Shown piece after piece: positions 7,346-30,411 of a stretch of 64,000 bases of DNA. This stretch comes from an uncultured Peptostreptococcaceae bacterium (lineage in GTDB: Bacteria; Bacillota; Clostridia; Peptostreptococcales; Anaerovoracaceae). The notes under the pieces are model-generated. The model ran no database searches. It was not told the origin of the DNA and was given only the letters and a program-made list of their open reading frames with translations. A program made the translations under genes and the position numbers. The stretch is taken from NCBI GenBank assembly GCA_905235115.1, contig CAJOKT010000003.1, positions 11,774 to 75,773 on the forward strand, read 5' to 3'. Numbering within the stretch: the stretch's first letter is position 1; the number at the start of each line of letters is the position of its first letter.

Positions 7346-7681
7346 ATGGGACGAAAAGGGATCAAGAAGCAGTTCTGGATGACCAAAGAACTGACCGAAG
7401 AACTATCCTGGAAAGCATCAAAGGCATGCCTTACAGAATCCGCACTTATCAGGATGCTCATAAGAGGATATCATCCTCCGGCTGCTCCGGGTGAAGAGTT
7501 CTATAAAGCCCTGAACGAACTCATACAGAAAGCTGACCGTATGCAGCTGACATCTGAAATCGTCAACAACTTGGATATCAAAACAGTTCTGACTGAGACA
7601 GCTGCAGATCTAAAGAAGCTGTCATTTGAGATAAGACAGAGATATCTCAAAGGAGAGAGGGAGAAGATAGAATGGCGGTAA
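7346..7681 (+). CDS. mobC: MobC-like relaxosome accessory protein
   Basis: Small protein directly upstream of, and overlapping, the relaxase gene. The SALIRMLIRG segment is typical of MobC-family proteins. Confidence 0.7.
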   Translation: MGRKGIKKQFWMTKELTEELSWKASKACLTESALIRMLIRGYHPPAAPGEEFYKALNELIQKADRMQLTSEIVNNLDIKTVLTETAADLKKLSFEIRQRYLKGEREKIEWR

Positions 7682-9006
7682 CAAAGATATGGAAGGTGAG
7701 AGGCAATGCCGGAACTGTCATAGATTATGCTGACAACCCTGAGAAGGTAGCAGGATATATTTCTAATGAAGACCTAGAAGATGTACTTGGCTATGCAGAC
7801 GATGATGTCAAAACAGAGAGTCATGCATATACCACTGCAATCAACTGCACCAGGGAATATGCCAAGGAAGAATTTGAACTGGTCAAGGAACTGTTCGCCA
7901 AGGAGGGAGGCACTGTAGCACTCCATGCGTATCAAAGCTTCGAAGAAAACATATCTCCCAGAGAAGCTCATGAGATAGGTGTGCAGATGGCAAAGGAACT
8001 TTGGGGAGACAAGTTCCAGGTAATAGTTGCAACTCATCTTAACACAGATCATGTTCATAACCATTTCGTTATAAACAGCGTGTCATTTGTTGATGGCAAG
8101 AGGTTCCATACAACAAACTACAGCTGGCTGGATATGGTTAGGGTATCAGACAGGCTTTGCAAAGAACACGGGCTTTCGGTGATTGAAAAAACTCAGGGTA
8201 AGCGGATCCCATACAATCTGTATATGAGAGAAAAGAATGGTGATCCTGTAAGATACAATATTGCAAGGGATGCCATTGACTATGCTGTGAAGAGAAGTCT
8301 CAATATGGAGGAGTTTAAAGCTGAACTCAGGGCTCTGGGATACAGTTTTCAGTTCGACCAAAACAGGAAGTATTGGACCGTTACTGTTCCAGGGTGGGAA
8401 AGACCGATAAGAACTTACAGGCTTGGATTCGAATACACCAGGGACAGGATCGTTGAAAGGATATATTCCAATGACGAAAGTGTAAGGACGAACAAGTACA
8501 GAGAAGCATACTATCATCGCCCAAACAACTATCATATGAGAAGACGGATCCATAGGATAAACACAAGGACGGGGTTGGAGAAACTGTATCTAAGAGTCTG
8601 CTATGAAATGGGATACCTTCCCAAGTACCGGCAGGATCCTCTTAAGGTCCACTATATCTTCCGTGATGAACTTCTTCGTTGTGATACCTATGGAAAGGAA
8701 GCCAGTTTGCTTTCACAGAATCATATTTCCACAATAGATGAGCTGACAAAACTTAAGAACGATAAGGCGAATGAAATCGATGACCTGATGGCCAGGAGAA
8801 CAGAACTCAGAAAGATGGCTAAACGAAACATACCGGAGGAACAGAAGGAAGTTTTGAAGGATAAGATTACAGATCTTACAGATCAAATCAAAAGGATAAG
8901 GTCAGACCTGAAGCTCATAGATGACATAGCCGAGAGATCCGGGATTCTGGAAGAAAAAATAAGAGAAGTTGACAGAGAAAGAAATGGAAAGGAGTTGATC
9001 AGATGA
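7672..9006 (+). CDS. Relaxase/mobilisation nuclease (MobA/VirD2 family)
   Basis: Histidine triad HLNTDHVHNHFVINSV. N-terminal relaxase domain with a coiled-coil C-terminus. Confidence 0.85.
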   Translation: MAVTKIWKVRGNAGTVIDYADNPEKVAGYISNEDLEDVLGYADDDVKTESHAYTTAINCTREYAKEEFELVKELFAKEGGTVALHAYQSFEENISPREAHEIGVQMAKELWGDKFQVIVATHLNTDHVHNHFVINSVSFVDGKRFHTTNYSWLDMVRVSDRLCKEHGLSVIEKTQGKRIPYNLYMREKNGDPVRYNIARDAIDYAVKRSLNMEEFKAELRALGYSFQFDQNRKYWTVTVPGWERPIRTYRLGFEYTRDRIVERIYSNDESVRTNKYREAYYHRPNNYHMRRRIHRINTRTGLEKLYLRVCYEMGYLPKYRQDPLKVHYIFRDELLRCDTYGKEASLLSQNHISTIDELTKLKNDKANEIDDLMARRTELRKMAKRNIPEEQKEVLKDKITDLTDQIKRIRSDLKLIDDIAERSGILEEKIREVDRERNGKELIR

Positions 9007-9615: not shown

Positions 9616-11433
9616 ATGAACGCGAGAGAAAAGACGAGTGATCTCATACTCTATGCCTTAGTCGGAGCCATACCAGTAATATGGATAGGCCTTGTATTAG
9701 CTCCATACTCAAATGAAGGTATTGTATATATTGCATCGCATATTGACGATATATTCAGCGATCCATTTGATATAAGGCTGAATGGAAGCAGCATCAGAAC
9801 GGTGCTGCTTTTCCTTTTGGCCTATGCTATGGGAATAGGCATTTATCTGTCGTCAAGGAAAAATTACAGACGGGGTGAGGAGCATGGCTCGGCTAAATGG
9901 GGTGCACCTTTTGCACTGAATAAGAAGTATGCAGACCACGACTATGAAAATAATAAACTACTGACTCAGAATGTCAGGATCGGACTTGATGGCAGGAAGC
10001 ACAGAAGAAATCTTAATGTGATTGTGATCGGCGGTTCAGGTGCAGGTAAGACCAGATTCTACTGCAAGCCCAACCTCATGCAGTCCAATACTTCGTTTGT
10101 CGTGCTCGACCCAAAAGGTGAGCAGTTAAGAGATACAGGTCACCTACTTGAAGAAAAGGGATATGAGATTAGAGTGTTGGACCTTATTAATATGGACAGA
10201 TCTCACTGCTATAATCCATTCGTCTATTTACGAAATGACAATGATGTACAGAGACTTGTGACCAACCTGTTCAAGGCAACTACACCCAAAGGATCGCAAA
10301 CCAGTGATCCGTTCTGGGATACAGCAGCACAAATGCTTTTGCTTGCACTCATATTCTATCTTCTGTATGAAGCACCTGTAGAGGAGCAGAATTTTGCAAT
10401 GGTTATGGAGATGATCAGAGCTGGGGAAGTCGATGAAGTAAACAACTTACCAAGTGCATTGGACAATCTTTTTAATGATCTGAGGAAGACAGATCCGTAT
10501 CACATATCGTTAAAATACTATGATGCCTATCATACAGGAGCTGCAAAGACTATCCAGTCCATTCAGATCACTCTGGCATCCAGACTTGAGAAGTTCAACC
10601 TTGAGAGCTTGGCTAAACTTACAATAACCGATGAGATGGATCTGGAGCAGCTTGGAGAGAAGAAGTATGCCATCTTTGCACTTATACCGGATAATGACAC
10701 CTCCTTCAACTTCCTGGTATCGATGCTGTATACTCAGCTTTTCCAACAGCTATTTGAAGTAGCCGATAAGAAGTATGGAGGAAGCCTGCCTGTACATGTG
10801 CATTTCCTTATGGATGAGTTTGCAAATGTTTCTCTTCCGGATGACTTCGATAAGATCCTTTCAGTAATGAGATCCAGAGGAGTATCAGTCAGTATAATTT
10901 TGCAGAACCTTGCACAGCTCAAGGCACTATTTGAGAAGCAGTGGGAGAGTATCGTAGGTAACTGCGACGAGTTCGTATACCTGGGAGGAAACGAACAGGC
11001 GACTCATAAATATGTGAGTGAGCTTCTTGGCAAGGAGACCATAGACCAGGATACCTTTAACAGAACGTTTGGGTCCAAAGGATCATACACAAGAAACGGA
11101 TCCCTTCAGGGAAGAGACCTGATGACAGCAGATGAAGTTCGAATGTTGGATAACAGAAACGCAATATTATTTATACGAGGAGAAAGACCTGTGATGGATC
11201 TCAAGTATGACATCATGAAGCATCCAAATGTGGCGCTTTCAGCAGATGGAAAAGCCGAACCATATATCCATGGTGACACCAAGGATGCTATGGGAACCAT
11301 CGTTATAACAGGTCAGGTGGATACAGATGAAGGAGAAAAAAGAGAGCCTCAGGAAAGCAGATTTGAGCTGCTTACGGAGGATGAAATCGAAAACGAAATA
11401 CAACGTACGGAAGGAGAAAGAAAAAATGACTAA
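9616..11433 (+). CDS. Type IV coupling protein (VirD4/TraG family)
   Basis: Two N-terminal TM helices, Walker A VIGGSGAGKT and Walker B HFLMDEF. Confidence 0.9.
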   Translation: MNAREKTSDLILYALVGAIPVIWIGLVLAPYSNEGIVYIASHIDDIFSDPFDIRLNGSSIRTVLLFLLAYAMGIGIYLSSRKNYRRGEEHGSAKWGAPFALNKKYADHDYENNKLLTQNVRIGLDGRKHRRNLNVIVIGGSGAGKTRFYCKPNLMQSNTSFVVLDPKGEQLRDTGHLLEEKGYEIRVLDLINMDRSHCYNPFVYLRNDNDVQRLVTNLFKATTPKGSQTSDPFWDTAAQMLLLALIFYLLYEAPVEEQNFAMVMEMIRAGEVDEVNNLPSALDNLFNDLRKTDPYHISLKYYDAYHTGAAKTIQSIQITLASRLEKFNLESLAKLTITDEMDLEQLGEKKYAIFALIPDNDTSFNFLVSMLYTQLFQQLFEVADKKYGGSLPVHVHFLMDEFANVSLPDDFDKILSVMRSRGVSVSIILQNLAQLKALFEKQWESIVGNCDEFVYLGGNEQATHKYVSELLGKETIDQDTFNRTFGSKGSYTRNGSLQGRDLMTADEVRMLDNRNAILFIRGERPVMDLKYDIMKHPNVALSADGKAEPYIHGDTKDAMGTIVITGQVDTDEGEKREPQESRFELLTEDEIENEIQRTEGERKND

Positions 11434-15610: not shown

Positions 15611-17955
15611 TAAGGACACTGTCTAATACGATAAAACAGGACAGGGTGAAGTTCAGGATACCTAAGATCGTGCAGGATATATTCCCCATGAGGATCGCAT
15701 TCAAAGATGGGATATTCATGGAAGAAAACGGATTGTTTTCGATCATGCTCAAGTTTGAGGATATAAACTATGCTGTGGCTTCCCGCGAAGACAAGGAGAT
15801 GATGTTCCTTAAGTATTCAGATCTCCTTAATTCCCTGGACAGTGGTGCTACGACCAAGATCACCATAAACAACAGGAAGTTCAATAAGACAGACTTTGAA
15901 GAAAAGATCATGATGAAGTTCAAAGGTGATGGCCTGGATGATTACAGAAGCGAATATAACAGGATACTTCTTGATAAGGTTACAGGCGCAAATGCCATCG
16001 TTCAGGATAAGTATATTACGATCTCTGTTCATAAGAAGAATATCGAGGAAGCCAGAAACTACTTTGCAAGAGTAACATCAGATCTCATAGCAAAGTTCAA
16101 CCGTTTGGGATCTGTGTGCACTGTGCTTGATGCCAGGGAAAGACTCAGGATATATCATGATTTTTTCAGATCCGGTGAAGAAACGGACTATTACTTCGAT
16201 ATATCTGACAAGACCAGAAAAGGTCACGACTTCCGCGACTATATATCCCCTGACACTTTTGAATGCAACAGCGACTATTTCAAGATCGGAAATCGTTTCG
16301 GTCGTGTTCTGTTCCTGAGAGGCTACGCTTCATATATCAAGGATTCCATGGTAACGGAACTTACCGATATCAACAGGAACCTGATGTTCTCGATAGATGT
16401 TGTCCCGGTTCCCACGGATGAGGCAGTAAAAGAAGTCGAGCAGAGGCTTCTCGGGGTAGAGACCAATATAACGAACTGGCAGAGGAAGCAGAACATGAAT
16501 AATAACTTCTCCGCCGTTGTTCCTTATGACATGGAGCAGCAGAGGAAAGAAGCAAAGGAATTCCTGGACGACCTTACAACGAGAGACCAGAGAATGATGT
16601 TCTCCGTTATGACTGTTGTCCATACTGCAGACAGTTTAAAGGAACTGGATAACGATACTGAGGCGATCCTGACTACTGCCAGAAAGCATCTCTGCCAGAT
16701 GGCTGTTTTAAGATATCAGCAGCTTGACGGACTTAAGACTGCAGTACCATTCGGTGTGAGAAAGATAAATGCATTCAGGACCCTCACAACTGAGAGCCTT
16801 GCCGTATTCATGCCCTTCCGCGTTCAGGAGATCAGGCATCAGAACGGCATTTGCTTCGGACTGAATGCCATTTCAAAGAATCTGATTATAGCATGCGTTG
16901 AGGAACTCATGAACGGTAACTGCTTCATACTGGGCACATCCGGTTCTGGTAAATCCATGATGGCCAAGTGGTATGCGGAGCTCAAAGCCCTTCAGAAGGA
17001 CGGAGACGTAGTGATCATAGACCCGGAAAGAGAATATCATAATCTGGTAAAGGCCCTCGGAGGAGAGGTCATACAGATATCCGCCACATCCCCCAACCAC
17101 ATCAATGCTCTCGATATGTCGAGGGATTACGGCGAGATAGATCCCGTCATAGAGAAATCCCAGTTCATTATGAGTTTATGCGAGCAGATCATAGCTGGAC
17201 ACAGGTTCACCAAGGGGCAGCAGTCTATCATAGACCGCTGCACTGAGAACGTATACAGGGAGTATCAGGAGCCAAACTATACCATCAAGCCTCCGACACT
17301 GGCAGATTTCAGAGAGGAGCTCCTAAGGCAGCCTGAAAGGGAAGCCAAATCCCTTGCCCTGGAACTGGAACTCTTCACTAAGGGATCACTCAACACCTTT
17401 TCCAAGCAGACGAATGTTGATACGAATAACAGCTTGATTTGCTATGACATTCTGGAACTCGGTGAGCAGCTCAAGGCTGTAAGCATGCTGGTCATACTCG
17501 ATTCGATCCTGAACAAGATCATCGAAAACAGGAAAAAAGGAAGAAAGACATATATCTTCATCGATGAGATATATCTGCTTTTCATGCATGAATACTCCGC
17601 ACAGTTCCTTTTCAAGCTCTGGAAGAGAGTAAGGAAGTACGGAGCCTTCTGCACGGGTATCACACAGAATGTGGAGGATCTTCTCCAGTCTCATACCGCA
17701 CGCACCATGCTGTCAAACTCCGAGTTCATCATCATGCTGAATCAGGCGGCGACGGATAGAAAAGAACTCGCAAAGCTTCTCAATATCTCCGATCTTCAGA
17801 TGTCCCACATAACCAATGTGGACCCCGGACACGGTCTCATAAAGATGGGACCGAACCTGGTACCGTTCGAGAACAGCATTCCGAGAGATACCAAACTGTA
17901 TCAGCTTATGACGACAAAGTTCAACGAAGGCGTAAGGCCCGGTGGTGTTTCATGA
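15607..17955 (+). CDS. virB4: VirB4-family T4SS ATPase
   Basis: 782 aa with Walker A ILGTSGSGKS and Walker B TYIFIDEIY. Confidence 0.9.
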   Translation: MIRTLSNTIKQDRVKFRIPKIVQDIFPMRIAFKDGIFMEENGLFSIMLKFEDINYAVASREDKEMMFLKYSDLLNSLDSGATTKITINNRKFNKTDFEEKIMMKFKGDGLDDYRSEYNRILLDKVTGANAIVQDKYITISVHKKNIEEARNYFARVTSDLIAKFNRLGSVCTVLDARERLRIYHDFFRSGEETDYYFDISDKTRKGHDFRDYISPDTFECNSDYFKIGNRFGRVLFLRGYASYIKDSMVTELTDINRNLMFSIDVVPVPTDEAVKEVEQRLLGVETNITNWQRKQNMNNNFSAVVPYDMEQQRKEAKEFLDDLTTRDQRMMFSVMTVVHTADSLKELDNDTEAILTTARKHLCQMAVLRYQQLDGLKTAVPFGVRKINAFRTLTTESLAVFMPFRVQEIRHQNGICFGLNAISKNLIIACVEELMNGNCFILGTSGSGKSMMAKWYAELKALQKDGDVVIIDPEREYHNLVKALGGEVIQISATSPNHINALDMSRDYGEIDPVIEKSQFIMSLCEQIIAGHRFTKGQQSIIDRCTENVYREYQEPNYTIKPPTLADFREELLRQPEREAKSLALELELFTKGSLNTFSKQTNVDTNNSLICYDILELGEQLKAVSMLVILDSILNKIIENRKKGRKTYIFIDEIYLLFMHEYSAQFLFKLWKRVRKYGAFCTGITQNVEDLLQSHTARTMLSNSEFIIMLNQAATDRKELAKLLNISDLQMSHITNVDPGHGLIKMGPNLVPFENSIPRDTKLYQLMTTKFNEGVRPGGVS

Positions 17956-19169
17956 GAGATATAAAGACAAGGGAATCCAGAGTAGGCTCGGTCAAGACGA
18001 TTGACCGGGCCTCCATGCTCGGAGACAGGATGAAACAGGCAAGCATAAAAGGAAAAGAGCAGATCATAGGGTTCGATCAAAGTGATGATCAGACAGAGAC
18101 TGCATATGCAGAAGAAAAGACGCTTAGTATGGCTGAAGACTCAGTATATGCAGCCGAACATACCGGGGAAAATGCTGTTGAACGAGGCAGGGAACTTGCC
18201 AAAATGGCAAGTGAAAAGAGAAAAGTTGCCAATATGGCAACAGAGTATTACCAATCTGGCAATATGGAGGGAATAAAAAGTGCCAATTTGGCAAGTCTAA
18301 GAAGAGATGTTGCCAATCCGGCAAGTGAGGTTACCAATATGGCAAGTCATTCGGGTAATGTTGCCAATATGGCAAGTCAGACTTGCCAATTTGGCAAGTC
18401 CCGAAGAAGAACAACTGGATCTCCGGACCTGACTCAGGGAATCTCAAGAGATAAAGCCGAATCCATGCTTAAGAGACAATACCAGATCAGGAAAGCAAGA
18501 GAGAGTGTAACCCGTAAAGCCGAAAGAAGCGGAAAGAGGATACTTGCATCCTTAAGAAGAGTCATAAGAGATTCAAAGTTCATCACGGGCTCCCTTGCTG
18601 TAGCGGGAAGTGTCGCATTAATTGCGATAATTGTTTGCACGTTCTTTGGATCAGCCTTCTATATTCTGGGAGATGAGAACAATGAAGGATATATCCTGGG
18701 AGGTTTCGAAGGAATCGGAGATGCAGGGATCGTTGCAGTAGCTGCAAGCCAGGTGGGAAACATTGGAGGAGAGCCATACTGGAGCTGGTATGGCTTCAAT
18801 GACAGAGTTGAATGGTGCGCCTGCTTCGTATCCTGGTGTGCGAACCAATGCGGATATATATCAGACGGGATCATACCTAAGTTTGCAGGAGTAGGCACCG
18901 GTATCAACTGGTTCCAAAACCGCGGACAGTGGCAAGGAAGAGGTTATCATCCAAAGCCAGGGGATATAATCTTCTTTGACTGGGATGGAGACGGATACGG
19001 CAACCATGTCGGAATCGTAGAGAGCAGTGATGACACATATGTCTATACCATCGAAGGAAACTCTGGCGACAGGTGTAAGAGACGAACATACTTCATTACC
19101 AGCAGCATGATCATGGGATATGGGATACCTGCATATCCTGCTGCTGCCATACCACAACCGGAAGAATAA
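17952..19169 (+). CDS. CHAP-domain peptidoglycan hydrolase (T4SS lytic enzyme) with an N-terminal repeat linker and a TM segment
   Basis: The C-terminal domain has WCACFVSWC (Cys) and GNHVGIVE (His). A TM helix (LAVAGSVALIAIIVC) is present, and an ATGA overlap links it to virB4. Confidence 0.85.
   Translation: MRDIKTRESRVGSVKTIDRASMLGDRMKQASIKGKEQIIGFDQSDDQTETAYAEEKTLSMAEDSVYAAEHTGENAVERGRELAKMASEKRKVANMATEYYQSGNMEGIKSANLASLRRDVANPASEVTNMASHSGNVANMASQTCQFGKSRRRTTGSPDLTQGISRDKAESMLKRQYQIRKARESVTRKAERSGKRILASLRRVIRDSKFITGSLAVAGSVALIAIIVCTFFGSAFYILGDENNEGYILGGFEGIGDAGIVAVAASQVGNIGGEPYWSWYGFNDRVEWCACFVSWCANQCGYISDGIIPKFAGVGTGINWFQNRGQWQGRGYHPKPGDIIFFDWDGDGYGNHVGIVESSDDTYVYTIEGNSGDRCKRRTYFITSSMIMGYGIPAYPAAAIPQPEE
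18196..18397. repeat. Array of eight 15-bp palindromes TTGCCA-N3-TGGCAA embedded in the CHAP gene
   Basis: Sites start at 18196, 18226, 18248, 18280, 18310, 18331, 18361 and 18383, giving spacings of 30, 22, 32, 30, 21, 30 and 22 bp. Six sites sit at codon offset 1 and two (18248, 18383) at offset 2. Confidence 0.8.
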
Positions 19170-19391: not shown

Positions 19392-21287
19392 ATGGCTAAT
19401 CTTTCAAAAGAACGTCGAGATCGCATGATTTCTAAGTTAGAGGAATTGAAGCAGTTACATAATGATGATGTTTCAATAGCCGCTTTAAATGAGATAGAGA
19501 ATGCTCTGCGTGAAAAAAAATATGGTTTGGTTTGGGAAGAACACTCTGAGGCTGTTGATGATATGTTGCGTGACAATATCCCTGTTCTTATAGCAGATCC
19601 TGAAAGAAGGCTGTGCAAGAACGAGAAATTGCCATGGAGTTTTATTATCGAGGGTGACAATCTTCAAGCACTTTATCTGTTGGAGAAAACCCATCGTGGC
19701 AAAGTGGACTGCATATATATTGACCCGCCATATAATACTGGTGCACGTGATTGGAAATATAACAATGATTATGTTGATGGCAATGACGATTATAGGCATA
19801 GTAAGTGGTTGTCTATGATGAAAAGTCGTTTATTAGTTGCAAAACGATTATTGAATCCCTACGATTCTGTTCTTATTTGTACAATTGATGAGAAAGAGTA
19901 TTTACATCTGGGTTGTTTGTTAGAAGAGTTGTTCCCAGAAGCAACCATGCAAATGATAAGCTCTAATATTCATCATGGAGGCTCAAATCGATTAGGAGAA
20001 TTCTCTAGAACAAATGAGTTTATCTTCTTTTTAAGATTTGGCACCGCAACTATAGTGAGAGAAGTATCAAATGAAAGTGAGCCGATTCCCTGGAGAGGTT
20101 TCTCTCGCGGTAATTGGAAGAGAAAAGATAGGCCGAATCTTTTCTATCCTATTTTCATTAATAAAGAAACTGATAAGATTGAAATAATAGGAGATTCGAT
20201 GCCCCTGGAACTGGACAGGCATTCAATATCAGATATTGATGGTTGTGAAACCATTTTTCCATTGACTAAAAACGGTGATGAGACTATTTGGTGTCTGTCC
20301 CCCGGATCAGCAAGAGAACTAAATGAAAAAGGCTATTTAAAAGTATCGGTAAAAAGATCGAAAAAAAGTATCAAGTATTCTTTGTCTTATCTTACGGAAG
20401 GAATAATAAATGATTTAAACTCTGGAAAAGCTATTATTGACGGAATAGATGCTAATGGGTACGTTATGGCTCATTATCCTAAGGGAAAAGAGATGATTCC
20501 TGCAACACAGTGGAATAGAGATTCGCATGATGCAACAGTCTATGGTTCCACAATTTTAAAATCAATGATTGGTGAACGTTTTAATTTCCCAAAATCGCTA
20601 TATGCAGTGCGTGACTGTATTAATTATTTTGTGGCTAATAAGCCCAATGCTATTATCGTGGATTTTTTTGCCGGATCAGGGACAACTCTACATGCCGTAA
20701 ATTTGCTTAATGCAGAAGATAAAGGGCAACGAAAGTGTGTTTTGGTTACAAATAATGAATTATCTGAAGAAGAACAAAAGTTGTTTAAAGAAAGGAATAT
20801 TTATCAAGGGGATAAAGAATGGGAAGAACATGGCATAGCTAAGTATGTTACTTGGCCACGTAGTATTTGTTCAATTGAAGGCCATGATGTACACGGAAAG
20901 CCACTAAAAGGCAATTATCTTGGCAGTAATCTGCCTATGGCAGATGGGTTCGATGCGAATGTAAAGTATTTTAAATGCGATTGGATTCCGCGAAAACCAG
21001 ATGACTATTTGCTTTCAAATATGCTCTGCTTACACATTAAAGAGCTTATAGAATTAAAGACCGCAAGGGAAATTGACAACAAGAAAAATGTACTTATTCT
21101 TAGCAAAAGTGATTTCAATAGAGTGTTTAATGATTCTGCGGTTTCAGAAGGTATTGAATGTGTTTGGGTAAATGAAAACATAGTTTTCAATTCAACCGAA
21201 TTGAGAAAACTTAGAGAAAAAAACTTCCGCTATATCCCAAGAGAGTTTTTCAGCCAAGAGCTAAAGGAGGTTGGGGAGTATGTTTAA
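19392..21287 (+). CDS. mod: Type III restriction-modification methyltransferase (Mod)
   Basis: KYGLVWEEH N-terminal box, motif IV IYIDPPYNTG, motif I VDFFAGSGTT near the C-terminus (beta-class order), and an 8-nt overlap with res. Confidence 0.8.
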   Translation: MANLSKERRDRMISKLEELKQLHNDDVSIAALNEIENALREKKYGLVWEEHSEAVDDMLRDNIPVLIADPERRLCKNEKLPWSFIIEGDNLQALYLLEKTHRGKVDCIYIDPPYNTGARDWKYNNDYVDGNDDYRHSKWLSMMKSRLLVAKRLLNPYDSVLICTIDEKEYLHLGCLLEELFPEATMQMISSNIHHGGSNRLGEFSRTNEFIFFLRFGTATIVREVSNESEPIPWRGFSRGNWKRKDRPNLFYPIFINKETDKIEIIGDSMPLELDRHSISDIDGCETIFPLTKNGDETIWCLSPGSARELNEKGYLKVSVKRSKKSIKYSLSYLTEGIINDLNSGKAIIDGIDANGYVMAHYPKGKEMIPATQWNRDSHDATVYGSTILKSMIGERFNFPKSLYAVRDCINYFVANKPNAIIVDFFAGSGTTLHAVNLLNAEDKGQRKCVLVTNNELSEEEQKLFKERNIYQGDKEWEEHGIAKYVTWPRSICSIEGHDVHGKPLKGNYLGSNLPMADGFDANVKYFKCDWIPRKPDDYLLSNMLCLHIKELIELKTAREIDNKKNVLILSKSDFNRVFNDSAVSEGIECVWVNENIVFNSTELRKLREKNFRYIPREFFSQELKEVGEYV

Positions 21288-23544
21288 TGGAACACTATTA
21301 CCATTTCAGGAATTGCATAAAAACAATCTTTTAAAGGCTTGCGCGGATAATACAAAACTTATTTTACAAGCACCAACAGGATCTGGAAAAACGGTTTTAG
21401 TAACAAAACTGATTGATGACTATCTAGAAGAAAATCCAGATACGGTCTTTATTTGGTTATGCCCAGGTGCAGGGGGGCTTCAGAATCAGTCAAGAAAAGT
21501 ATTTGAAGATTTTACAGCAGGAATTAATACGGGGGATTTATTTGGCTTTATTTCAAATTATCGTCCCTCGGGAGGCGTCTATTTCATAAATTGGGACAAA
21601 ATAAACAAATCAACAAATATTGTACTGAGGGATGGAGAAGACAAAAATCTTTTGGAAAAAATCATAGAATGTAGGACTGCATGCTTAGATTTTTTCATGA
21701 TTATTGATGAAGAACATCTTAATAAAAAAGCTGCAGAAATGTATGAGAATATATTTAAACCATCGCACATACTACGTATTTCTGCAACAACAAAGACAAC
21801 AGGGGGATATAAAGAAGTAATAAGCGATGATGAAGTAATAGCTGCAGGTCTAATTACATCAGGTATTTCTATTAATGAAGACCTAACAATGCAGGCTGCT
21901 TATAATGATAATTACGTGGATGATCTTCTTTTGCTTCAAATGGCAGATAGGAAGAGAAGAGAAATACAAGCAGAATATGATAAACGTAACCTTAATATAC
22001 GGCCTTTAGTTCTCATTCAATTTTCCAACGGCAGCGACGAATGGATTGCAAAAGTCAAAGCAGAATTGGCAAATATGGGCTATACGGAAAAAAACGGTCT
22101 CGTAACATCATGGTTTAGCGGAGATCACCCGAACAATCCAGAGGAGTTATCGAAACTAAACGGCAAATATGCCTTCCTGCTTTTTAAACAAGCAATTGCA
22201 ACAGGATGGGATTGCCCTCGAGCAAAGATTTTAGTAAAACTACGTGAAGGTACTACTGAAACTTTTGACATACAGACAATTGGAAGAATCAGGCGCATGC
22301 CGGAACGCCATCACTACGAGTCGGAATTACTTGACCACTGTTACGTTTATACGCTAGATGAAAAATTTAATGAGGGATTAACATCTAGTGTTAATGACTC
22401 TTTCTATATCAGTAGATATATGCGTAAGGATGATGCTCCGAGCTTTATATTAGAACATGAATATCTTGCAGAAAGTGATAAAGATGCTTTAGATGAGGAG
22501 GCAGTAGTAAAAGCAATTCGAGAAAAGTTGTTAATGGAGTGCGACTTAGATCAAAATGGATTCCTTTCCAAGAAGGAATTAGAACTTTCAAAAGGAATAA
22601 CGTTTGGCCTGAAACTAAAGACGAGGGCGGTCGAAGGATTTGCAAGGACCACCCATGATATCACAAAACTCAAGACCACCTTCTGCGGGGAGCACGAAAT
22701 AAACATTCACGATGATGGTCTGGTTATACGTGATGCAAAAAGAAGAATAGCTCAAGCAATTGGAATAGACGAAAAGATTTCAAGTAAAGCTTTATCTATT
22801 CTGTTTGATTCATCCAGGATGAAAGTTCCGTTTGGCGATGGCGGTCAAATTTCGCTTTTCTCAGATGAAGATCTGCAGATAGATAAGCAGTATAAAGTTA
22901 TAAAAGACATGGGCCATCGAGAGTATAGCGCATTTCTTGTAAATAACTGGGAAATACTAGCAGATTTGTTACGTGATATCGACAAAACGGGAATTGAACT
23001 GGTCGATATAAAGACTGATAAGTTGAAGTGGTCTATTCCCAAAATGCAAGATTATAAAAAGCATAATAAGAGTAGCGGTGGCACATTGCTCGAAAAGAAT
23101 GTATTTATGGGATATACCAATGACATTCTTGTTCAACCCAATAGATCTTTACCCGAGATAACCTTTGAAAACTGGTGCGAGATAAATGATGATGTCAAGT
23201 GGGTATACAAGAATGGGGATAAAGGACAAGACTTCTTCTCCATTGTATACAGGGTTACTTTTAGGAGATATAATTTTTACCCCGACTACATCATCCAACT
23301 TAAAAATGGCGATAAATGGATCATCGAGACTAAAGGTGGTGCTGGAGCTGATGGCTCATCGCAGAATATTGATAAATATGCAGCCCAGAAGTTTGACGCT
23401 TTAAAGGAATATGGGCAACAGCATCCCGATATTAAATGGGGTTTTGTTCGTAATATAGGAGCAAAACTATTGATATCAACTACAGAATGGGACGAGAACT
23501 TGCTTAACGATAACGTATGGAAACCAATCGCAGAAGTCATGTAA
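21280..23544 (+). CDS. res: Type III restriction enzyme Res subunit (SF2 helicase plus C-terminal PD-(D/E)xK nuclease)
   Basis: ATG 21280 follows an AAGGAGG SD. Walker A is QAPTGSGKT and motif II is IIDEEH. The C-terminal FYPDYII...WIIETKGG is a PD...ExK motif. Confidence 0.8.
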   Translation: MFNGTLLPFQELHKNNLLKACADNTKLILQAPTGSGKTVLVTKLIDDYLEENPDTVFIWLCPGAGGLQNQSRKVFEDFTAGINTGDLFGFISNYRPSGGVYFINWDKINKSTNIVLRDGEDKNLLEKIIECRTACLDFFMIIDEEHLNKKAAEMYENIFKPSHILRISATTKTTGGYKEVISDDEVIAAGLITSGISINEDLTMQAAYNDNYVDDLLLLQMADRKRREIQAEYDKRNLNIRPLVLIQFSNGSDEWIAKVKAELANMGYTEKNGLVTSWFSGDHPNNPEELSKLNGKYAFLLFKQAIATGWDCPRAKILVKLREGTTETFDIQTIGRIRRMPERHHYESELLDHCYVYTLDEKFNEGLTSSVNDSFYISRYMRKDDAPSFILEHEYLAESDKDALDEEAVVKAIREKLLMECDLDQNGFLSKKELELSKGITFGLKLKTRAVEGFARTTHDITKLKTTFCGEHEINIHDDGLVIRDAKRRIAQAIGIDEKISSKALSILFDSSRMKVPFGDGGQISLFSDEDLQIDKQYKVIKDMGHREYSAFLVNNWEILADLLRDIDKTGIELVDIKTDKLKWSIPKMQDYKKHNKSSGGTLLEKNVFMGYTNDILVQPNRSLPEITFENWCEINDDVKWVYKNGDKGQDFFSIVYRVTFRRYNFYPDYIIQLKNGDKWIIETKGGAGADGSSQNIDKYAAQKFDALKEYGQQHPDIKWGFVRNIGAKLLISTTEWDENLLNDNVWKPIAEVM

Positions 23545-23589
23545 GTATTGGCCTGTTATCTCTATAAGTATTATATAGTTTGATCATTA

Positions 23590-25350
23590 ATGAAACCAAA
23601 GAAGTATTTAATCGAGTATCCTGATCTATTGAAAGAGTGGGATTATGAAAAAAATGAAGAAATGGGCCTAAAACCAGACAAAGTTTCTATTGGAAGCAAC
23701 AAGATAGTCTGGTGGCTATGTCCGTTAGGTCATAGTTATGATATGAGACTGGCAACACGAAAGCGTGGTTCTGGTTGCCCATATTGTTCTGGTCGACGAG
23801 TGCTAAAAGGTTTTAATGATTTAGCTACCAAGGTTCCACAAGCGCTGAAATATTGGGATTACAATAAGAATGCCATTAGCCCAGAAGAGGTGTCACCAGG
23901 ATCAAACGAGGTGGCATGGTGGAAGTGCAATAACGGACATAGTTATGACATGACTATACACAAGAGAGTATCCAGAAACCTCGGCAGTTGTCCTATATGT
24001 TCCGGACATAAAACGGTATCAGGAATTAATGATTTTGCAACACTCTATCCCGAAATAGCTAAAGAATGGCATCCTACTAAAAATGGGGACGTTACGCCTA
24101 ACACTATTTCAAAGAAGAACGGCAACAAATATTGGTGGCAATGTAAGTATGGCCACGAATGGCAAGCAACGCCGCATGACAGGGCTGAAGGAACGGGTTG
24201 TCCTGAGTGCTTCAGGAGGTTCCAAACTTCCTTTTTCGAGCAGGCCATTTATTACTATGTAAAACAACTGTATCCAAACACAAAAAACCGGTACAAAGAT
24301 ATATTTGATAACGGAATGGAACTTGATGTTTACGTCCCTGATATCAAGCTTGGAATAGAATTTGATGGCATAAACTGGCATCAAGCAGAAGACAATAAAA
24401 GACGTGACAAGGAGAAGTTTAGAATTTGTTCTGAAAAGGGCATAAAGCTGATTCGAATTATTGAAACAAAAGAACGAGACTGGGATAATTCGACTGCCAC
24501 GTACCATATACGAAAGAAGAATAAAGAGGATCTTCAGGGTGCTGTCCAAGATATTCTGAATAGGATAGATCCGGAATCCAATATGTGGACTAGAAAGAAT
24601 CCACTGCAGCACTACAGTAGGATTATTGTTGACATTGAACGAGATGAAATAGACATAAGGTCATCATATATGAGTGTCATTCCGAATTCTTTGGTTGATT
24701 TCCGGCCTGATTTACTAGAAGACTGGAATTATGAAAGAAACGGTAAACTAAAGCCCGAGATGTTCGGTATTAATTCAAACGATCGCGTTTGGTGGAAGTG
24801 CCATAAATGCGGGCATGAATGGCAAACTACCGTAATACATAGAGGTGGTAAACGAAACAGCGGTTGTCCCGAATGTTCTAAAGAAAAAAAGGGCAAAACG
24901 TTTACTGCAAAACGGGTCTCCGAAAGAGGATCACTGGCAGATAAAAATCCTGAACTGGCTAAACAGTGGCATCCAACCAAAAACGGTGATTTAAAACCAA
25001 CTGATATTACAGAAAAAAGATTCAAGCCCGTATGGTGGCTTTGCCCGGTATGTGGTCATGAGTGGGAAGCATCACCTAACAGTAGAACGCAGGGAATAGG
25101 ATGCCCATGCTGCAGCGGAAGGGTTCCAAGGGTTGGCGTAAATGATCTGAAGACACTATTTCCAGACATAGCAAAAGAATGGAACTATGAAAAGAATGGC
25201 GATGTAAAACCTGAAGATCGTCTGCCTGGCAGCGGAAAGAAAGCATGGTGGAGATGTTCGGTTTGTGGTTGCGAGTGGGAAGCTATCATTAAGAATAGGA
25301 CAAAAGGAAGCGGATGCCCAAATTGGAGACATCATTTTAGAAAGAGTTAA
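23590..25350 (+). CDS. Multi-zinc-ribbon protein with a central Vsr/DUF559-like endonuclease domain
   Basis: Six copies of the pattern WW.C..GH.W......R..G.GCP.C, three on each side of the block MELDVYVPDIKLGIEFDGINWH...RRDKEKF...GIKLIRI. The start codon is uncertain because there is no clear SD. Confidence 0.7.
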   Translation: MKPKKYLIEYPDLLKEWDYEKNEEMGLKPDKVSIGSNKIVWWLCPLGHSYDMRLATRKRGSGCPYCSGRRVLKGFNDLATKVPQALKYWDYNKNAISPEEVSPGSNEVAWWKCNNGHSYDMTIHKRVSRNLGSCPICSGHKTVSGINDFATLYPEIAKEWHPTKNGDVTPNTISKKNGNKYWWQCKYGHEWQATPHDRAEGTGCPECFRRFQTSFFEQAIYYYVKQLYPNTKNRYKDIFDNGMELDVYVPDIKLGIEFDGINWHQAEDNKRRDKEKFRICSEKGIKLIRIIETKERDWDNSTATYHIRKKNKEDLQGAVQDILNRIDPESNMWTRKNPLQHYSRIIVDIERDEIDIRSSYMSVIPNSLVDFRPDLLEDWNYERNGKLKPEMFGINSNDRVWWKCHKCGHEWQTTVIHRGGKRNSGCPECSKEKKGKTFTAKRVSERGSLADKNPELAKQWHPTKNGDLKPTDITEKRFKPVWWLCPVCGHEWEASPNSRTQGIGCPCCSGRVPRVGVNDLKTLFPDIAKEWNYEKNGDVKPEDRLPGSGKKAWWRCSVCGCEWEAIIKNRTKGSGCPNWRHHFRKS

Positions 25351-25369
25351 TCATAAGGAAGGAAAGAAA

Positions 25370-25651
25370 ATGAAACTTGATTTTCCCGTAACAGTTTGTC
25401 TTGGTGGAGGAGATGGAGGGGACGTTTCCGTAAGGATTGACGTTACAAAAGAGGAGTTCGATTTACTTGTTGAAGCATGTGAAGATGGAGACGAGATAAA
25501 TGAATGCGAGTCATTGAGTGACTTGTATGACAGAATAGTCTCTGCTGCAGATGAAGAGTGTGATTGGGATTATGGCGGCGATGAATCAGACTTAGATGAA
25601 GCCACGTATCTTGTATCATATCCTGAGAAAGTAGCCGATGCTGTTTTATAG
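25370..25651 (+). CDS. Small, highly acidic protein (93 aa)
   Basis: ATG 25370 follows an AAGGAAGG SD. By my count about 28 of 93 residues are Asp/Glu and about 5 are basic. Confidence 0.55.
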   Translation: MKLDFPVTVCLGGGDGGDVSVRIDVTKEEFDLLVEACEDGDEINECESLSDLYDRIVSAADEECDWDYGGDESDLDEATYLVSYPEKVADAVL

Positions 25652-25693
25652 GAGTAAAAACTACATTCTAACATATGGAATGGAGAGGTTAGC

Positions 25694-26818
25694 ATGATAT
25701 ATAAGTACATCTATGATATTGATCGAGTCGAAAGTATTATAGACTTATTTTTGGAATACGTTTCAAAACAGCCTCGGCAGATAGGAAAGAAGGTTTCGTT
25801 CTCATCTGGATATTTGCATTATATGGAAGGCTATAAGCCTGCCGTCTATGTAAAAACGGCTGATATCTTAGAGATTAAAAAATGGGATAAAAGAACATCC
25901 CCCGAAGACATTGTTGCACGAGCAATCAAAGCAATTAAGTTAAGCGAGAATAATCTTGTAGACTGGAGGGAAAAGTCTCGTTTTGAAGAAAGGTTGCTGG
26001 AGGACACAACAACTGGAGGAAACTTACTTCAGAGGTTGTTTTGCACTGAAAACGATGATCAGACTGCAGAGGACCTTGCTGGATTTTTTGGGCGAAGGTA
26101 TGACATGATAGCCTATTTGTTTTTTATTAAAGATCCGGACCGATATTATCCATGCAGGCCTACTGTGTTTAAAAAGGCGTTCGATGATCTTGGAGTGGAC
26201 TCAACTTGTTTTGGACGATTTACCTATGATAAGTACGTACAGTACAACGACACACTAAGGGAACTTGCAAACCTGTATTCTTCGTACAGGGACCATATCA
26301 GTGTTTTGGATGCTCATTCTTTTGCCTGGATAGTCGGGAAATATAAAGATGTGAGGAATTACATCTTTGAATGTGATGAAGAAGAGACAACAGTTAAAGA
26401 CCAAACCGGGAAAAAAGAAAAGCTGGCTGTAGTCAAGACAAGGGTGAATCAAAGTGAGTTCCGGAGAAAAGTAGTTGAATACTGGGGAGAAGAGTGTTCG
26501 GTTACGGGGTGTAAACAGACCGATCTTTTGGTAGCATCACATATAAAACCATGGAGGGATTGTACGCTTAATAGCGAAAGCTCAAACAAGTTTAATGGCT
26601 TGCTGCTTACACCAAATCTGGATGCACTATTTGACGCAGGATACATTTCGTTTAAAGATGACGGAACAATCCTGATTTCCGAAAGGTTGTCTGATTCCAC
26701 AATAAAGATCTTTGGGCTGTCTAATGACATGAAACTTCGCTGGATTGAGGATACGCACAAAGGATTCCTCCAGTATCACAGGGAGAATATCTTCAGGCAG
26801 TTAATTACGAGCAAATAA
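25694..26818 (+). CDS. HNH endonuclease (HNH_2-type C-terminal domain) with an uncharacterised ~240-aa N-terminal domain
   Basis: C-terminal segment FRRKVVEYWGEECSVTGC...LLVASHIKPW...NGLLLTPNLDALFDAGYISF. Confidence 0.8.
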   Translation: MIYKYIYDIDRVESIIDLFLEYVSKQPRQIGKKVSFSSGYLHYMEGYKPAVYVKTADILEIKKWDKRTSPEDIVARAIKAIKLSENNLVDWREKSRFEERLLEDTTTGGNLLQRLFCTENDDQTAEDLAGFFGRRYDMIAYLFFIKDPDRYYPCRPTVFKKAFDDLGVDSTCFGRFTYDKYVQYNDTLRELANLYSSYRDHISVLDAHSFAWIVGKYKDVRNYIFECDEEETTVKDQTGKKEKLAVVKTRVNQSEFRRKVVEYWGEECSVTGCKQTDLLVASHIKPWRDCTLNSESSNKFNGLLLTPNLDALFDAGYISFKDDGTILISERLSDSTIKIFGLSNDMKLRWIEDTHKGFLQYHRENIFRQLITSK

Positions 26819-26831
26819 CACAGGCATTATC

Positions 26832-27839
26832 ATGAAAGACCAAGAAGCTAACACAACTAAACGCCCGCCCAAGGCACCAAACTCCGAGAAAACTCGCCTT
26901 CTAGTTCTTTACAAGTTCTTCTACGAGAATACCGATGAGGACCATCAGGTAACATATGATGATATTTTCCAATATCTTAAGGAGCATGATGTTCTTGCCA
27001 ATCACATGACCGTCCGCGACGATATCCGACTATTGATGGACCTGGGTTACGATATAGTGCGTGTTCCAAGCAGACCGGTCAAATATTTTATGGGGCAGCG
27101 TGAAATGGAGGCTGCCGAAGTCAAGCTTCTTATAGATGCAGTTTCATCATCGCGTTTCATCACGTCCAAGAAGAGCCGCGATCTCGCCAAGAAGCTGGGT
27201 AACCTTACAAGCCAGTATCAGCGCAAGGAACTCAAGAGGAACATCTATGCCACTCACCGTGCCAAGACAGACAACGAAGAAATCTACTACACGGTTGACG
27301 TGGTGAATACGGCGATCAACTCCAAGAAAAAGATTTCCTTCCAGTACACAGAGTACACGCCTAAAGAAGGCAAGGTGCTGCGTAACGACGGTGAAGTCTA
27401 TGAGCTGAGCCCATACGCCCTTTTTTGGAATGAGGACTACTATTATGTGGTCGGCTGGTCTGATAAGCATCAGAATGTATCTGTTTTCAGGACAGACAGG
27501 TTATATAAGCCGCAGGTACTGAAAGAGAAAGCAGTCAAGAAACCAGATGACTTCAGTCTGGACGCATACTCCAAGAGGATCTTTGAGATGTATGACGGAG
27601 ATCCCGTGGAAGTCAGGCTGAAATGCAAGAACGAACTCATGAAGTATATTGTGGATCGGTTCGGGCCGGATTTCGAAATGAAACCTGCAGCCAAGGACAG
27701 CTTTATCGCTACCGTGGAAGTATCGCTGAGCCCAACGTTTTACGCCTGGGTATTCACCTTCGGCGGGGGAATAAGGATAATGACCCCGAAGAAGGCCGTT
27801 ACTGAGTTCAGAGATATGGCGAAAGCGGTGCTGGAGTAG
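26832..27839 (+). CDS. WYL-domain transcriptional regulator (wHTH plus WYL plus C-terminal extension)
   Basis: N-terminal HTH segment, then ISFQYTEYT...YELSPYALFWNEDYYYVVGW...FRTDRL, the canonical WYL-domain pattern. Confidence 0.85.
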   Translation: MKDQEANTTKRPPKAPNSEKTRLLVLYKFFYENTDEDHQVTYDDIFQYLKEHDVLANHMTVRDDIRLLMDLGYDIVRVPSRPVKYFMGQREMEAAEVKLLIDAVSSSRFITSKKSRDLAKKLGNLTSQYQRKELKRNIYATHRAKTDNEEIYYTVDVVNTAINSKKKISFQYTEYTPKEGKVLRNDGEVYELSPYALFWNEDYYYVVGWSDKHQNVSVFRTDRLYKPQVLKEKAVKKPDDFSLDAYSKRIFEMYDGDPVEVRLKCKNELMKYIVDRFGPDFEMKPAAKDSFIATVEVSLSPTFYAWVFTFGGGIRIMTPKKAVTEFRDMAKAVLE

Positions 27840-27853
27840 AGAAAGGAGACAAT

Positions 27854-28564
27854 ATGTTAAAAAAGTTTGAACCATTTGAAAGCGTGGACATTAAGGCTTT
27901 TGAAAGATTCAATCGGGATTTGAGAACAATCCTTGAAAAAATGGATGCCGGCGAGATAAACCTTAAAGGACGGCATGCAAAGGAGGAATTCCAATCTTTA
28001 ATAGAGTCTTTTGTTACAGGACAAAGAGGGTCGTTAGGAAGAACAAAAGAAGGAAGTTGGTCTATTGTACCTAACGATGAAGGGATGGATTCCGATAACA
28101 GAGTAGACTATATCTTTATACCTACATATTTGGTCACTGCAATCTTGTCAAGGACACTGTGCGATTTTCCATTGATTGCTATTTCCATTCCTGGCTTCGG
28201 GGAAGCTCTAAAAAAGGGGATGCTCTTCTGCTCGTATCGAAATTTACATGGACATGGGTTTGAAAGCGATATAGGTGCAGCAGAGGCCTTGACTATATTA
28301 TCTATGGGGAAAATACCATGGCTTTTAGAGAAAGATCCAGCATTTTGTCCAGACCTATATAAGGCAATCAAAACAGTCAGTAGAGATATGGAAAGGCGTT
28401 TATCTTTGGGCACGGCTGTTGGACCTTGGGGAGAAAACCTGCAGGATATTTTCAGCTCCTCTTTAGAGACATTATATGTGAAAAATGATATAGAGATGTA
28501 TGAGACTATACAGCATACCAACAAAGACTCCGAACTAGTTGGAAAGGAGGCTTTATTATGGTAA
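27854..28564 (+). CDS. Unknown 236-aa protein in the antitoxin position of a YoeB-like toxin
   Basis: AAAGGAGA SD. The stop TAA (28562..28564) overlaps the toxin ATG (28558) as ATGGTAA. I recognise no known motif. Confidence 0.6.
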   Translation: MLKKFEPFESVDIKAFERFNRDLRTILEKMDAGEINLKGRHAKEEFQSLIESFVTGQRGSLGRTKEGSWSIVPNDEGMDSDNRVDYIFIPTYLVTAILSRTLCDFPLIAISIPGFGEALKKGMLFCSYRNLHGHGFESDIGAAEALTILSMGKIPWLLEKDPAFCPDLYKAIKTVSRDMERRLSLGTAVGPWGENLQDIFSSSLETLYVKNDIEMYETIQHTNKDSELVGKEALLW

Positions 28565-30327: not shown

Positions 30328-30411
30328 ATGACAGTAAGCATGACAGTAAGGATGACAGTAACAGTGACAGTAAGCATGACAGTCTCCATGACAGTAAAGA
30401 TGACAACAAAC
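30328..30411 (+). repeat. Seven tandem 12-nt direct repeats (consensus ATGACAGTAAGN)
   Basis: Copies start at 30328, 30340, 30352, 30364, 30376, 30388 and 30400 (the last is degenerate). A partial copy GTGACATGACAG lies at about 30443. Confidence 0.85.

Follow-up and report, generated by a model that had tools for sequence, protein, structure and literature searches.

Within the cell-wall hydrolase gene of an integrative conjugative element (ICE) from an uncultured Peptostreptococcaceae bacterium, about 200 bp of coding DNA carry eight phased copies of one palindrome that is conserved as DNA rather than as peptide. We analyzed a stretch of 64,000 nucleotides (contig CAJOKT010000003.1, positions 11,774 to 75,773; referred to here as the window), which holds the right two thirds of this Firmicute MPF_FA-type ICE. 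The interpretation that we favor, with belief and doubt in equal measure, is that the 200-bp stretch is an iteron-type array bound as duplex DNA by the winged helix-turn-helix (wHTH) protein of the ICE and is not a self-sufficient replication origin. The features concerned are as follows, in window positions.

18194 to 18399, no strand assigned: palindrome array of eight phased sites with the core TTGCCA-N3-TGGCAA, in the linker-coding part of the CHAP gene
18196 to 18210: site 1, TTGCCAAAATGGCAA, read as LAKMAS; with its flanks, the 19-bp palindrome ACTTGCCAAAATGGCAAGT
18226 to 18240: site 2, TTGCCAATATGGCAA, read as VANMAT
18248 to 18262: site 3, TTACCAATCTGGCAA, one base out of register, read as YYQSGN
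18280 to 18294: site 4, GTGCCAATTTGGCAA, read as SANLAS
18310 to 18324: site 5, TTGCCAATCCGGCAA, read as VANPAS
18331 to 18345: site 6, TTACCAATATGGCAA, read as VTNMAS
18361 to 18375: site 7, TTGCCAATATGGCAA, the same letters as site 2, read as VANMAS
18383 to 18397: site 8, TTGCCAATTTGGCAA, one base out of register, read as TCQFGK; with its flanks, a 19-bp palindrome
17952 to 19169, plus strand: host gene, a cell-wall hydrolase of the type IV secretion system (T4SS); open reading frame (ORF) of 405 amino acids with a Pfam CHAP domain
414 to 749, plus strand: stand-alone wHTH protein of 111 amino acids, the putative binder of the array

All eight sites carry at most one mismatch to the core. 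The first and last are longer palindromes (ACTTGCCA-N3-TGGCAAGT, 19 bp), and outside the arms the site unit is asymmetric, with the extended consensus RAAAS-TTGCCAATWTGGCAA-GT. When the window was scanned at up to two mismatches, a single match was found outside the array, at 9229; shuffled sequence gave a mean of 3.0 matches at this threshold, and nine or more were reached in 0 of 100 shuffles. Start-to-start spacings are 30, 22, 32, 30, 21, 30, and 22 bp, which is two to three helical turns, and a Rayleigh test supports a common helical phase (R = 0.84 at 10.5 bp per turn and 0.89 at 10.3; p ∼0.002 against a null of random spacings of 16 to 35 bp). Site offsets from the ORF start, modulo 3, are 1, 1, 2, 1, 1, 1, 1, and 2. 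The spacers are mutually unrelated while the arms are identical across sites, and TRF detected weak periods of 21 and 51 bp. The original prediction, made from the letters of the window, had described eight palindromes at 18196 to 18397, their spacings, their placement on one face of the DNA, and the displacement of the copies at 18248 and 18383 by one nucleotide (YQSGN and CQFGK), all of which we recovered; the search for the motif elsewhere that it proposed added, within the window, only the match at 9229. Several other identities were considered for the array. CRISPR array criteria do not fit, with repeats of 15 to 19 bp and spacers of 6 to 17 bp all within an intact ORF; an internal promoter scan of the array found none; and a sigma-54-like promoter was rejected by eye because the spacing is wrong.

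The hydrolase consists of a conserved N terminus, a linker that is hypervariable among homologs and holds the array, a transmembrane helix encoded downstream of the array, and the CHAP domain (residues 284 to 370; Pfam E value of 3.6e-17). The array-bearing linker is probably disordered and appears to tolerate almost any peptide, which would explain how the array can be read in any frame. The plasmid database yielded no close relative of the hydrolase gene.

Comparison with related elements separates conservation of the DNA from conservation of the peptide. In five close relatives, with CHAP proteins 85 to 100% identical, the eight sites are kept at identical spacing. Variable columns among these relatives amount to 4 of 96 in the arms and 6 of 24 in the N3 centers, compared with 26 of 86 in the inter-site spacers and 36 of 85 in the flanks (together 62 of 171); Fisher tests of the arms against the remaining column classes give p values between 1e-6 and 1e-10. 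Third codon positions are variable in 0 of 32 cases in the arms versus 25 of 57 elsewhere. Locus L126 (CHAP 64% identical) has four sites at frame offsets 0, 1, 1, and 2, which are read as NLPIWQ, LANLAS, PANLAS, and TCLFGK and so use all three frames, and the reading frames of the sites vary likewise, at the protein level, in P0009 (locus L197) and P0011. In L001 (CHAP 50% identical), most copies stand in the YQNGK frame, and several sites have changed to TTACCA-N3-(T/C)GGTAA; L001 and P0046 together represent a TTACCA-N3-TGGTAA type. Because orthologs keep the palindrome while frame and peptide change, a DNA-level element is favored, and these alignments show that the DNA of the array and not its peptide is under purifying selection. 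The original prediction had made the same claim and had set an alignment of orthologs beforehand as its refutation test; in that alignment the palindrome is kept across frames and the synonymous arm positions are frozen. Selection on a VANMAS peptide repeat is excluded by the use of three frames together with the frozen synonymous positions. Overlapping ORFs (LPxWQ frames at 18082 to 18276 on the plus strand and 18124 to 18324 on the minus strand) were rejected as the conserved entity, since the register of the sites differs between orthologs.

The array has a narrow distribution among hydrolase genes: in the 120 best CHAP homologs, more than one motif signature peptide occurs only in the closest clade, P0010, and P0046. 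Loci L118 and L122 to L124 keep all eight sites, with CHAP 93%, VirB4 95%, RadC 97%, and orf117 95% identical to their window counterparts. In L037 (the same as L125), the linker array is gone, decayed motif traces remain in the linker at about 10409 to 10440, and immediately behind the CHAP stop codon the intergenic DNA holds a pair of degenerate sites at 21-bp spacing.

L037, 11266 to 11301 (L125, 19271 to 19306): degenerate site pair

The same motif recurs in replication initiator genes. We scanned genome collections for two adjacent TTGCCA-N3-TGGCAA sites and obtained 24 loci from a viral contig collection, where about one is expected by chance, and more than 120 from a metagenome collection. 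Many of these loci lie within Pfam Phage_rep_O genes, where the array follows directly on the N-terminal wHTH domain. The identical core is present in L004, L023, L128, L147, L149, and L220, and such arrays comprise up to eight sites, 21 to 23 bp apart, that are read in two to three frames (CQNGK, LPNWQ, and VAKS). Rep_O-type sites have the flanks and center AGG...AAA...CC, versus AAAC...AAT(C/T)...GT in ICE-type sites. Two further initiator genes, found both by the profile of the ICE protein family (E value of ∼2e-6) and by phrog_6493, have five (L005) and three (L017) perfect TTGCCA-AWW-TGGCAA sites after the N-terminal domain; a tblastn search of named phages with the L017 initiator gave no match. 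Sites of the same layout with other arm sequences, GTATCA-AAA-TGATAC at 22 to 23 bp, occur within the gene and directly after the wHTH homolog domain in Staphylococcus phages Sebago and SP276, and the rep gene of L010 has TGCTCA-AAA-TGAGCA sites (5625 to 5703) after the same N-terminal domain. L010 also has, at 2062 to 2161, TTGCCAAAATGGTAA sites exactly between a TTGACT −35 and a TATAAT −10 element, with similar arrangements in L022, L012, and L015; these sites are an operator in a switch region and are separate from the rep-gene iterons of that phage.

Arrays with ICE-type flanks (AAAC-TTGCCAATCTGGCAA) are also found outside genes, at three loci that each have 10 to 13 noncoding sites spaced at 31 or 20 bp (R of 0.94 to 0.99 at 10.3 bp per turn).

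L134, 113 to 467: noncoding array
L145, 8603 to 9022: noncoding array
L156, 8293 to 8844: noncoding array

Their neighbors are restriction, DndB-like, HNH, GIY-YIG, and Schlafen-helicase genes. Because these loci share only the array with the ICE, homology being limited to it, the array is portable and does not depend on the CHAP gene. In all three, the main array is followed by a gap and then by two further sites 21 bp apart, and the L156 array abuts a PreP peptidase gene. The motif was encountered in another arrangement as well, in low-GC metagenome contigs with perfect 42-bp tandem repeats (L132, 4371 to 4638; L183, 11506 to 11814; L226, 5393 to 5659; and L228, 4962 to 5187; also L166, L215, L229, and L242). 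Each repeat holds TTGCCA-AGG-TGGCAA or a CCT variant, and these tracts are open in nearly all six frames and resemble centromere repeats of the sopC type.

Which protein would recognize the sites? The original prediction had listed the product of 414 to 749 among candidate binders, and this protein proved to be the one with a family link to such initiators. In PHROG it matches phrog_11233, annotated as replication initiation protein, over residues 4 to 103 (E value of 2.6e-17) and phrog_6493, annotated as DnaD-like helicase loader (E value of 2.8e-7). In Pfam no family was found at an E value of ≤0.001, Phage_rep_O (PF04492) included, and we claim family membership for the PHROG families only. 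A tblastn search returned 26 phage records with ∼30% identity over ∼90% of the length, to the N-terminal domain of Staphylococcus and Lactobacillus phage initiators. The family numbers 6,009 representatives and takes two forms, stand-alone proteins of ∼110 amino acids and N termini of 250- to 330-amino-acid proteins with a repeat-coded linker. An AlphaFold2 (AF2) model (predicted local distance difference test score, 83.5) is a winged helix of the order H-H-β-β-H-H-β-β-H; its fold matches in the PDB are weak and generic (MarR, PadR, TubR, and the RepA N-terminal domain, 4pql; E values of ≥8e-3 and template modeling scores of 0.45 to 0.58). By profile similarity, then, the 414-749 protein is homologous to the origin-binding domain of phage replication initiators and consists of that domain alone; arrays of matching architecture, and sometimes of identical sequence, lie in initiator genes of this kind. 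ACTTGCCAATTTGGCAAGT is the sequence that we name as the putative target of its dimer.

Comparison within the ICE family also bears on the identity of the binder. In L118 and L122 to L124, the relaxase module (window 7346 to 9006) has been swapped, leaving the relaxase 73% and the NikA-like protein 40 to 44% identical. The wHTH protein is 98% identical in the same elements and the array is kept. Because the relaxase and the NikA-like protein diverge while the eight sites persist, we look for the binder among the conserved proteins and not in the relaxosome, and both of those proteins are unlikely candidates. Among elements with both positions in view, five have both the wHTH gene and the array, three have the wHTH gene without the array, none has the array without the wHTH gene, and 30 have neither (Fisher p of 1e-4, uncorrected for relatedness). 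L125/L037 and L272 lack both the wHTH gene and the linker array. A de novo search for palindromes and dense k-mer arrays in 80 related ICEs, plus five whose wHTH protein is 41 to 46% identical, found none. Among 24 wHTH homologs from viral contigs, various iterons follow the N-terminal domain in the fused forms, and L248, the only stand-alone protein, lacks an array within 10 kb.

The array shares with iteron origins several helically phased copies (8 sites, 21 to 32 bp, R = 0.84). Origin iterons are expected to have an AT-rich DNA unwinding element (DUE) beside them (PMC4980987). None was found at the ICE array: the lowest GC content of any 40-bp segment within 250 bp is 33%, in an element of 42% GC, and the segment concerned is part of the array. 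The phage and plasmid arrays that we checked have a sharp AT dip right beside them, at 3 to 28% GC (for example, 10% in loci of 54 to 56% GC). No DnaA box was found near the array; the nearest TTATCCACA-like sequences, with one mismatch, are at 12718 and 20630, and their count in the window equals chance. DnaA boxes are common near iterons and are optional. No replisome-recruiting domain was found for the 414-749 protein, and orf117 and orf99, considered as the missing initiator C-terminal domain, have no similarity to such domains. The ICE ORFs that we scanned include neither a helicase gene nor a loader gene. Nor was there a second set of sites, at up to one mismatch, in the 44 kb comprising the ICE part of the window and 10 kb upstream (L027). 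Because two defining features were tested and found absent, we do not assign the array to the replication origin class. With no AT-rich unwinding element, no DnaA box, and no replisome-recruiting domain in its binder, it is probably not a self-sufficient origin.

Known systems place the array more precisely. In the lambda O gene, iterons with dyad symmetry lie in the linker-coding part of the initiator gene and constitute the lambda origin. The ICE array resembles it in having copies of an ∼18-bp dyad site, phased at about two turns, within a peptide-tolerant part of an ORF, and it shares its exact core, as described above, with the arrays of Phage_rep_O genes. Unlike the lambda origin, it lies in a T4SS cell-wall hydrolase gene and not in an initiator gene, its candidate binder is encoded 17.5 kb away as a DNA-binding domain alone, no AT-rich unwinding element adjoins it, and its spacing alternates between two and three turns. 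The genes of Firmicute phage initiators of phrog_6493 and phrog_11233 (for example, in Sebago and SP276) have 6-N3-6 palindromes with the same ..CA-AAA-TG.. core, at 22 to 23 bp and directly after the N-terminal domain to which the 414-749 protein is homologous, and L005 and L017, members of this family by profile, carry TTGCCA-AAA-TGGCAA itself. The ICE protein differs from them in lacking the C-terminal half, in having its array away from its gene, and in being only ∼30% identical to the closest phage homologs, whose arm sequences differ.

The incA cluster of P1 and incC of F are nonorigin iteron clusters that control plasmid copy number by titration or handcuffing. The ICE array is similar in having iterons at two- to three-turn spacing, without an unwinding element or origin function, that could sequester an initiator. 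Those clusters act against origin iterons of the same sequence, whereas none are present in the 44 kb of the ICE that we read. RepA_N plasmids (pAD1 and pSK41) have their origin repeats in the central, poorly conserved part of repA. They are comparable in hiding a cis repeat array in the variable middle of a gene on a Firmicute mobile element and in having a wHTH dimer as binder (predicted for the ICE), and they differ in that the array is the origin and lies in the initiator's own gene. Centromeres such as sopC of F, parC of R1, and tubC of pBtoxis, the last bound by the wHTH protein TubR, are made of phased repeats. The ICE array resembles them in its short, phased sites, which a small DNA-binding dimer would occupy, and the ICE encodes ParA and ParB. 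The array lies, however, within a gene and well away from the par operon, and no link to ParB or to a TubZ-type motor was found. SGI1 oriV consists of four direct repeats, a DnaA box, and AT-rich regions, in an intergenic position beside rep (PMC7433901). Both elements are integrated mobile elements with Rep-type binding repeats, which in SGI1 are used after excision (PMC7433901). The ICE array has neither the DnaA box, nor the AT-rich regions, nor the intergenic place beside rep.

We take the array to be a platform or a sink for the 414-749 protein, proposing with moderate confidence that this protein binds it and with low confidence what downstream role it would then have. Each 15- to 19-bp palindrome would be a site for one wHTH dimer, and the spacing of two to three turns would align the bound dimers on one face of the DNA and so permit a higher-order nucleoprotein complex, in parallel with phage initiators on iterons within their own genes. 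The array would act on duplex ICE DNA, excised or integrated. Such a complex might serve the plasmid-like phase of the excised ICE in copy control, pairing, or segregation, or it might act in activation through transcription of the T4SS operon. Known uses of iteron arrays without an origin are copy control by titration or handcuffing, pairing and segregation, and transcriptional roadblocks. In its general part, the original prediction of an embedded cis-acting array for a dimeric DNA-binding protein is supported by the frame-independent conservation, the frozen arms, and the homology of 414 to 749; its more specific guess of a centromere or operator was loose, the closest known kind being an iteron array.

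Several observations weigh against assigning the array to this wHTH protein as duplex DNA. The wHTH gene is 17.5 kb from the array, and no site was found near its promoter, where the palindrome that is present is the terminator of the upstream gene. In pairwise BLAST, the 414-749 protein gives no significant match to the initiators whose genes have the identical motif, so that the link holds at the profile level only. Three related ICEs with a wHTH protein 41 to 46% identical have no array within 10 kb on either side of the gene for the VirD4-type coupling protein (T4CP), and in the 8 to 10 kb examined around the L134, L145, and L156 arrays, there is no wHTH homolog. The five array-positive elements are close kin, and the co-occurrence therefore amounts to one or two independent events. 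Some phages use the motif as an operator at promoters (L010), and the motif alone does not identify the family of its binder. Finally, arm mismatches on the coding strand are biased (10 A·C versus 2 G·T), which would suit a single-stranded hairpin.

That last observation leads to an account in which the array functions as single strands, either in the transferred strand (T-strand) or in RNA, as eight small hairpins or, if sites pair with each other, one long imperfect hairpin; it could be a single-strand origin or priming signal for the Toprim primase of the ICE in the recipient or a set of weak antisense terminators. The minus strand is presumably the T-strand, by analogy with MOB_P systems, since the leading-region genes (ArdC, RadC, and primase) and the relaxase lie on opposite sides of oriT. 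The array folds far better than shuffled versions (−48 kcal/mol, z = −9.2, for the DNA minus strand; z = −7.1 for the RNA plus strand), but any palindrome array folds well and the z-scores do not discriminate. The mismatches counted over the ICE-clade sites (window, L036, L118, L120, L122, L126, L177, L197, L001, and L037) are wobble compatible on the minus strand, where A·C becomes G·T, an asymmetry that could reflect mutation bias or a single-stranded minus-strand form. On the same strand, three of the eight sites are terminator-like, and the hairpin is followed by short T-runs, the counterpart of the A-rich 5′ flanks. Set against this, the arms are invariant across the eight copies and across unrelated elements (122 of 144 arm pairs are consensus; the 3 that are compensated are all of the L001 type), strict two- to three-turn spacing matters for duplex DNA only, stems of 6 to 8 bp with 3-nucleotide loops are weak, and the motif and architecture are shared with initiator genes, for which duplex binding by wHTH dimers is established. 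Rfam has no relevant match, and the RNA hairpins that the original prediction offered as its alternative are weakened by this and by arms that are invariant rather than covarying. We consider the single-stranded account unlikely. The array could instead be a true vegetative origin of the excised ICE, fired by transcription of the T4SS operon, at which the wHTH protein would recruit the primase of the ICE or factors of the host. In kind and in placement the array matches the lambda-type origins that lie within a transcribed gene, the ICE encodes a Toprim/DUF3991 primase and ParA/ParB, and integrative elements with iteron origins exist, SGI1 among them (PMC7433901). Counting against it are the missing AT-rich DUE and DnaA box, where the phage and plasmid arrays checked have a sharp AT dip, a binder that is an N-terminal domain only and for which orf117 is no initiator C-terminal domain, and the failure to see a helicase or loader gene among the ICE ORFs scanned; such an origin is decidedly unlikely.

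A centromere for the ParA/ParB pair of the ICE, bound by ParB directly or through the wHTH protein as site-specific adaptor, would accord with the ParA and ParB_N proteins encoded at the left end of the ICE, with the TubR and PadR-like folds among the weak structural matches of the 414-749 protein, and with the phased palindromes typical of sopC, parC, and tubC. ParB and the wHTH protein are inseparable by co-occurrence, since L125 lacks both. The array is, however, ∼24 kb from parAB, no TTGCCA-N3-TGGCAA site lies near parAB, and long palindromes directly upstream of parA, perfect or nearly so, could be parS instead; these could be parS-like sites or element-end sequences.

L027, 2167 to 2196: palindrome upstream of parA, 30 bp
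L027, 2415 to 2441: palindrome upstream of parA, 27 bp
L027, 2491 to 2530: palindrome upstream of parA, 40 bp

We regard a centromere as quite improbable. About as doubtful is a module for decoy or replication interference, in which iterons without a DUE and a wHTH protein without an effector domain would titrate or block the replication initiators of incoming phages or competing plasmids; the idea would extend to the unrelated defense islands L134, L145, and L156 as firing-incompetent copies of an origin. Engineered "phage-encoded resistance" (Per), built from a cloned phage ori, would then have a natural counterpart. The array core is identical to the iterons in several phage and plasmid initiator genes, the ICE copy lacks the parts needed to fire, the array borders a defense-cargo region (type III restriction-modification [R-M] and others), and the noncoding arrays stand beside restriction, DndB, HNH, and Schlafen-helicase genes. 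The flanks and center differ between ICE-type and Rep_O-type sites, though, so the binders may differ; no motif-bearing phage is tied to the ICE host, the search of named phages with the L017 initiator having come back empty; and a single chromosomal copy titrates poorly. A direct role as a restriction or R-M target (the core holds GCC-N5-GGC) was rejected, as there is no association and the downstream cargo differs among array-bearing relatives. A trivial explanation would be that the DNA has no function of its own, being a VANMAS peptide repeat or a neutral minisatellite homogenized by slippage or gene conversion. The array does lie in a hypervariable linker, has weak tandem periods, and is missing from most homologs. 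Three reading frames are nonetheless in use, third positions in the arms are frozen as given above, identical arms between unrelated spacers are the opposite of unit-wise homogenization, and the motif also occurs in unrelated genes and in noncoding DNA; we give this explanation hardly any credence. Duplex binding by the wHTH protein stays our preferred reading of the array.

The ICE around the array is laid out as follows. The left part of the window encodes, in order, the 414-749 protein, RadC, ArdC, a DUF3991-Toprim primase, and DUF3846; next come the NikA-like protein, a MobA/VirD2 relaxase, DUF3801, and the T4CP; and then TrbL_2, DUF5688, PrgI, VirB4, and the CHAP hydrolase. Cargo after the CHAP gene comprises a type III R-M system, DUF4379/restriction endonuclease (REase), HNH, and WYL genes. 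At the right end are two sigma-like proteins and a tyrosine integrase (31867 to 33168), with chromosomal genes beyond. Upstream on the same contig (L027) are ParA and the ParB_N protein, at the left end of the ICE, and an adhesin. Relatives of the ICE were found in Lachnospiraceae, Oscillospiraceae, and other gut and rumen Clostridia.

Comparison of these relatives yielded further observations on the element. The region just 3′ of the CHAP gene (19392 to 28564) is a cargo hot spot with a different defense set in each close relative: the genes listed above in the window, Dcm/Vsr in L036 (from 5694), NgoFVII, Z1, Dcm/Vsr, and AIPR in L037 (from 11981), an HATPase gene in L118 (from 20873), and a DUF4379 gene in L122 (from 20457). 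An accessory insert at 4488 to 7221, between DUF3846 and the relaxase operon, carries genes for a folate-binding protein of the GCV_T family and, on the minus strand, for a PucR-type regulator; L125 also has this insert, but L118 and L122 lack it. Seven head-to-tail 12-bp repeats (ATGACAGTAAGN) at 30330 to 30410 lie directly 3′ of the sigma-like ORF 29728 to 30324, which has a weak DUF1492 match, and upstream of the Sigma70_r4 gene at 30703 to 31092; they are a candidate second protein-binding array in the ICE. Copies of CACTTTGAA and TTCAAAGTG cluster in both orientations at 3637 to 3760 (also at 3960), in the 3′ part of the DUF3991-Toprim primase gene.

It is textbook knowledge that iterons can be embedded in initiator genes, as in lambda O and the RepA_N plasmids. 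Searching the literature both for the motif and for the concept, we came across no report of such an array in a T4SS hydrolase gene. What appears to be new here is a hydrolase-gene array that is unlinked from a domain-only homolog of an initiator and stripped of origin features. It offers a clean natural case of dual coding, in which a selected binding array, its binding being inferred, sits in an unrelated gene and is read in three frames across orthologs; gene-based annotation is blind to arrays of this kind. Since arrays of this type recur in unrelated islands as well as many initiator genes, NNNNCA-N3-TGNNNN at a phasing of ∼21 to 31 bp may be a widespread recognition code, with which metagenomes could be searched for origins and similar sites. 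For the ICE family, the finding means that a Tn1549-like MPF_FA ICE of gut Firmicutes carries phage-type replication pieces, domain and iterons, 17.5 kb apart. If they act as a decoy, they would be a natural, chromosomally spread counterpart of engineered Per origin-decoy resistance. These pieces bear on how such an ICE is maintained and controlled while excised or on how mobile elements interfere with each other's replication.

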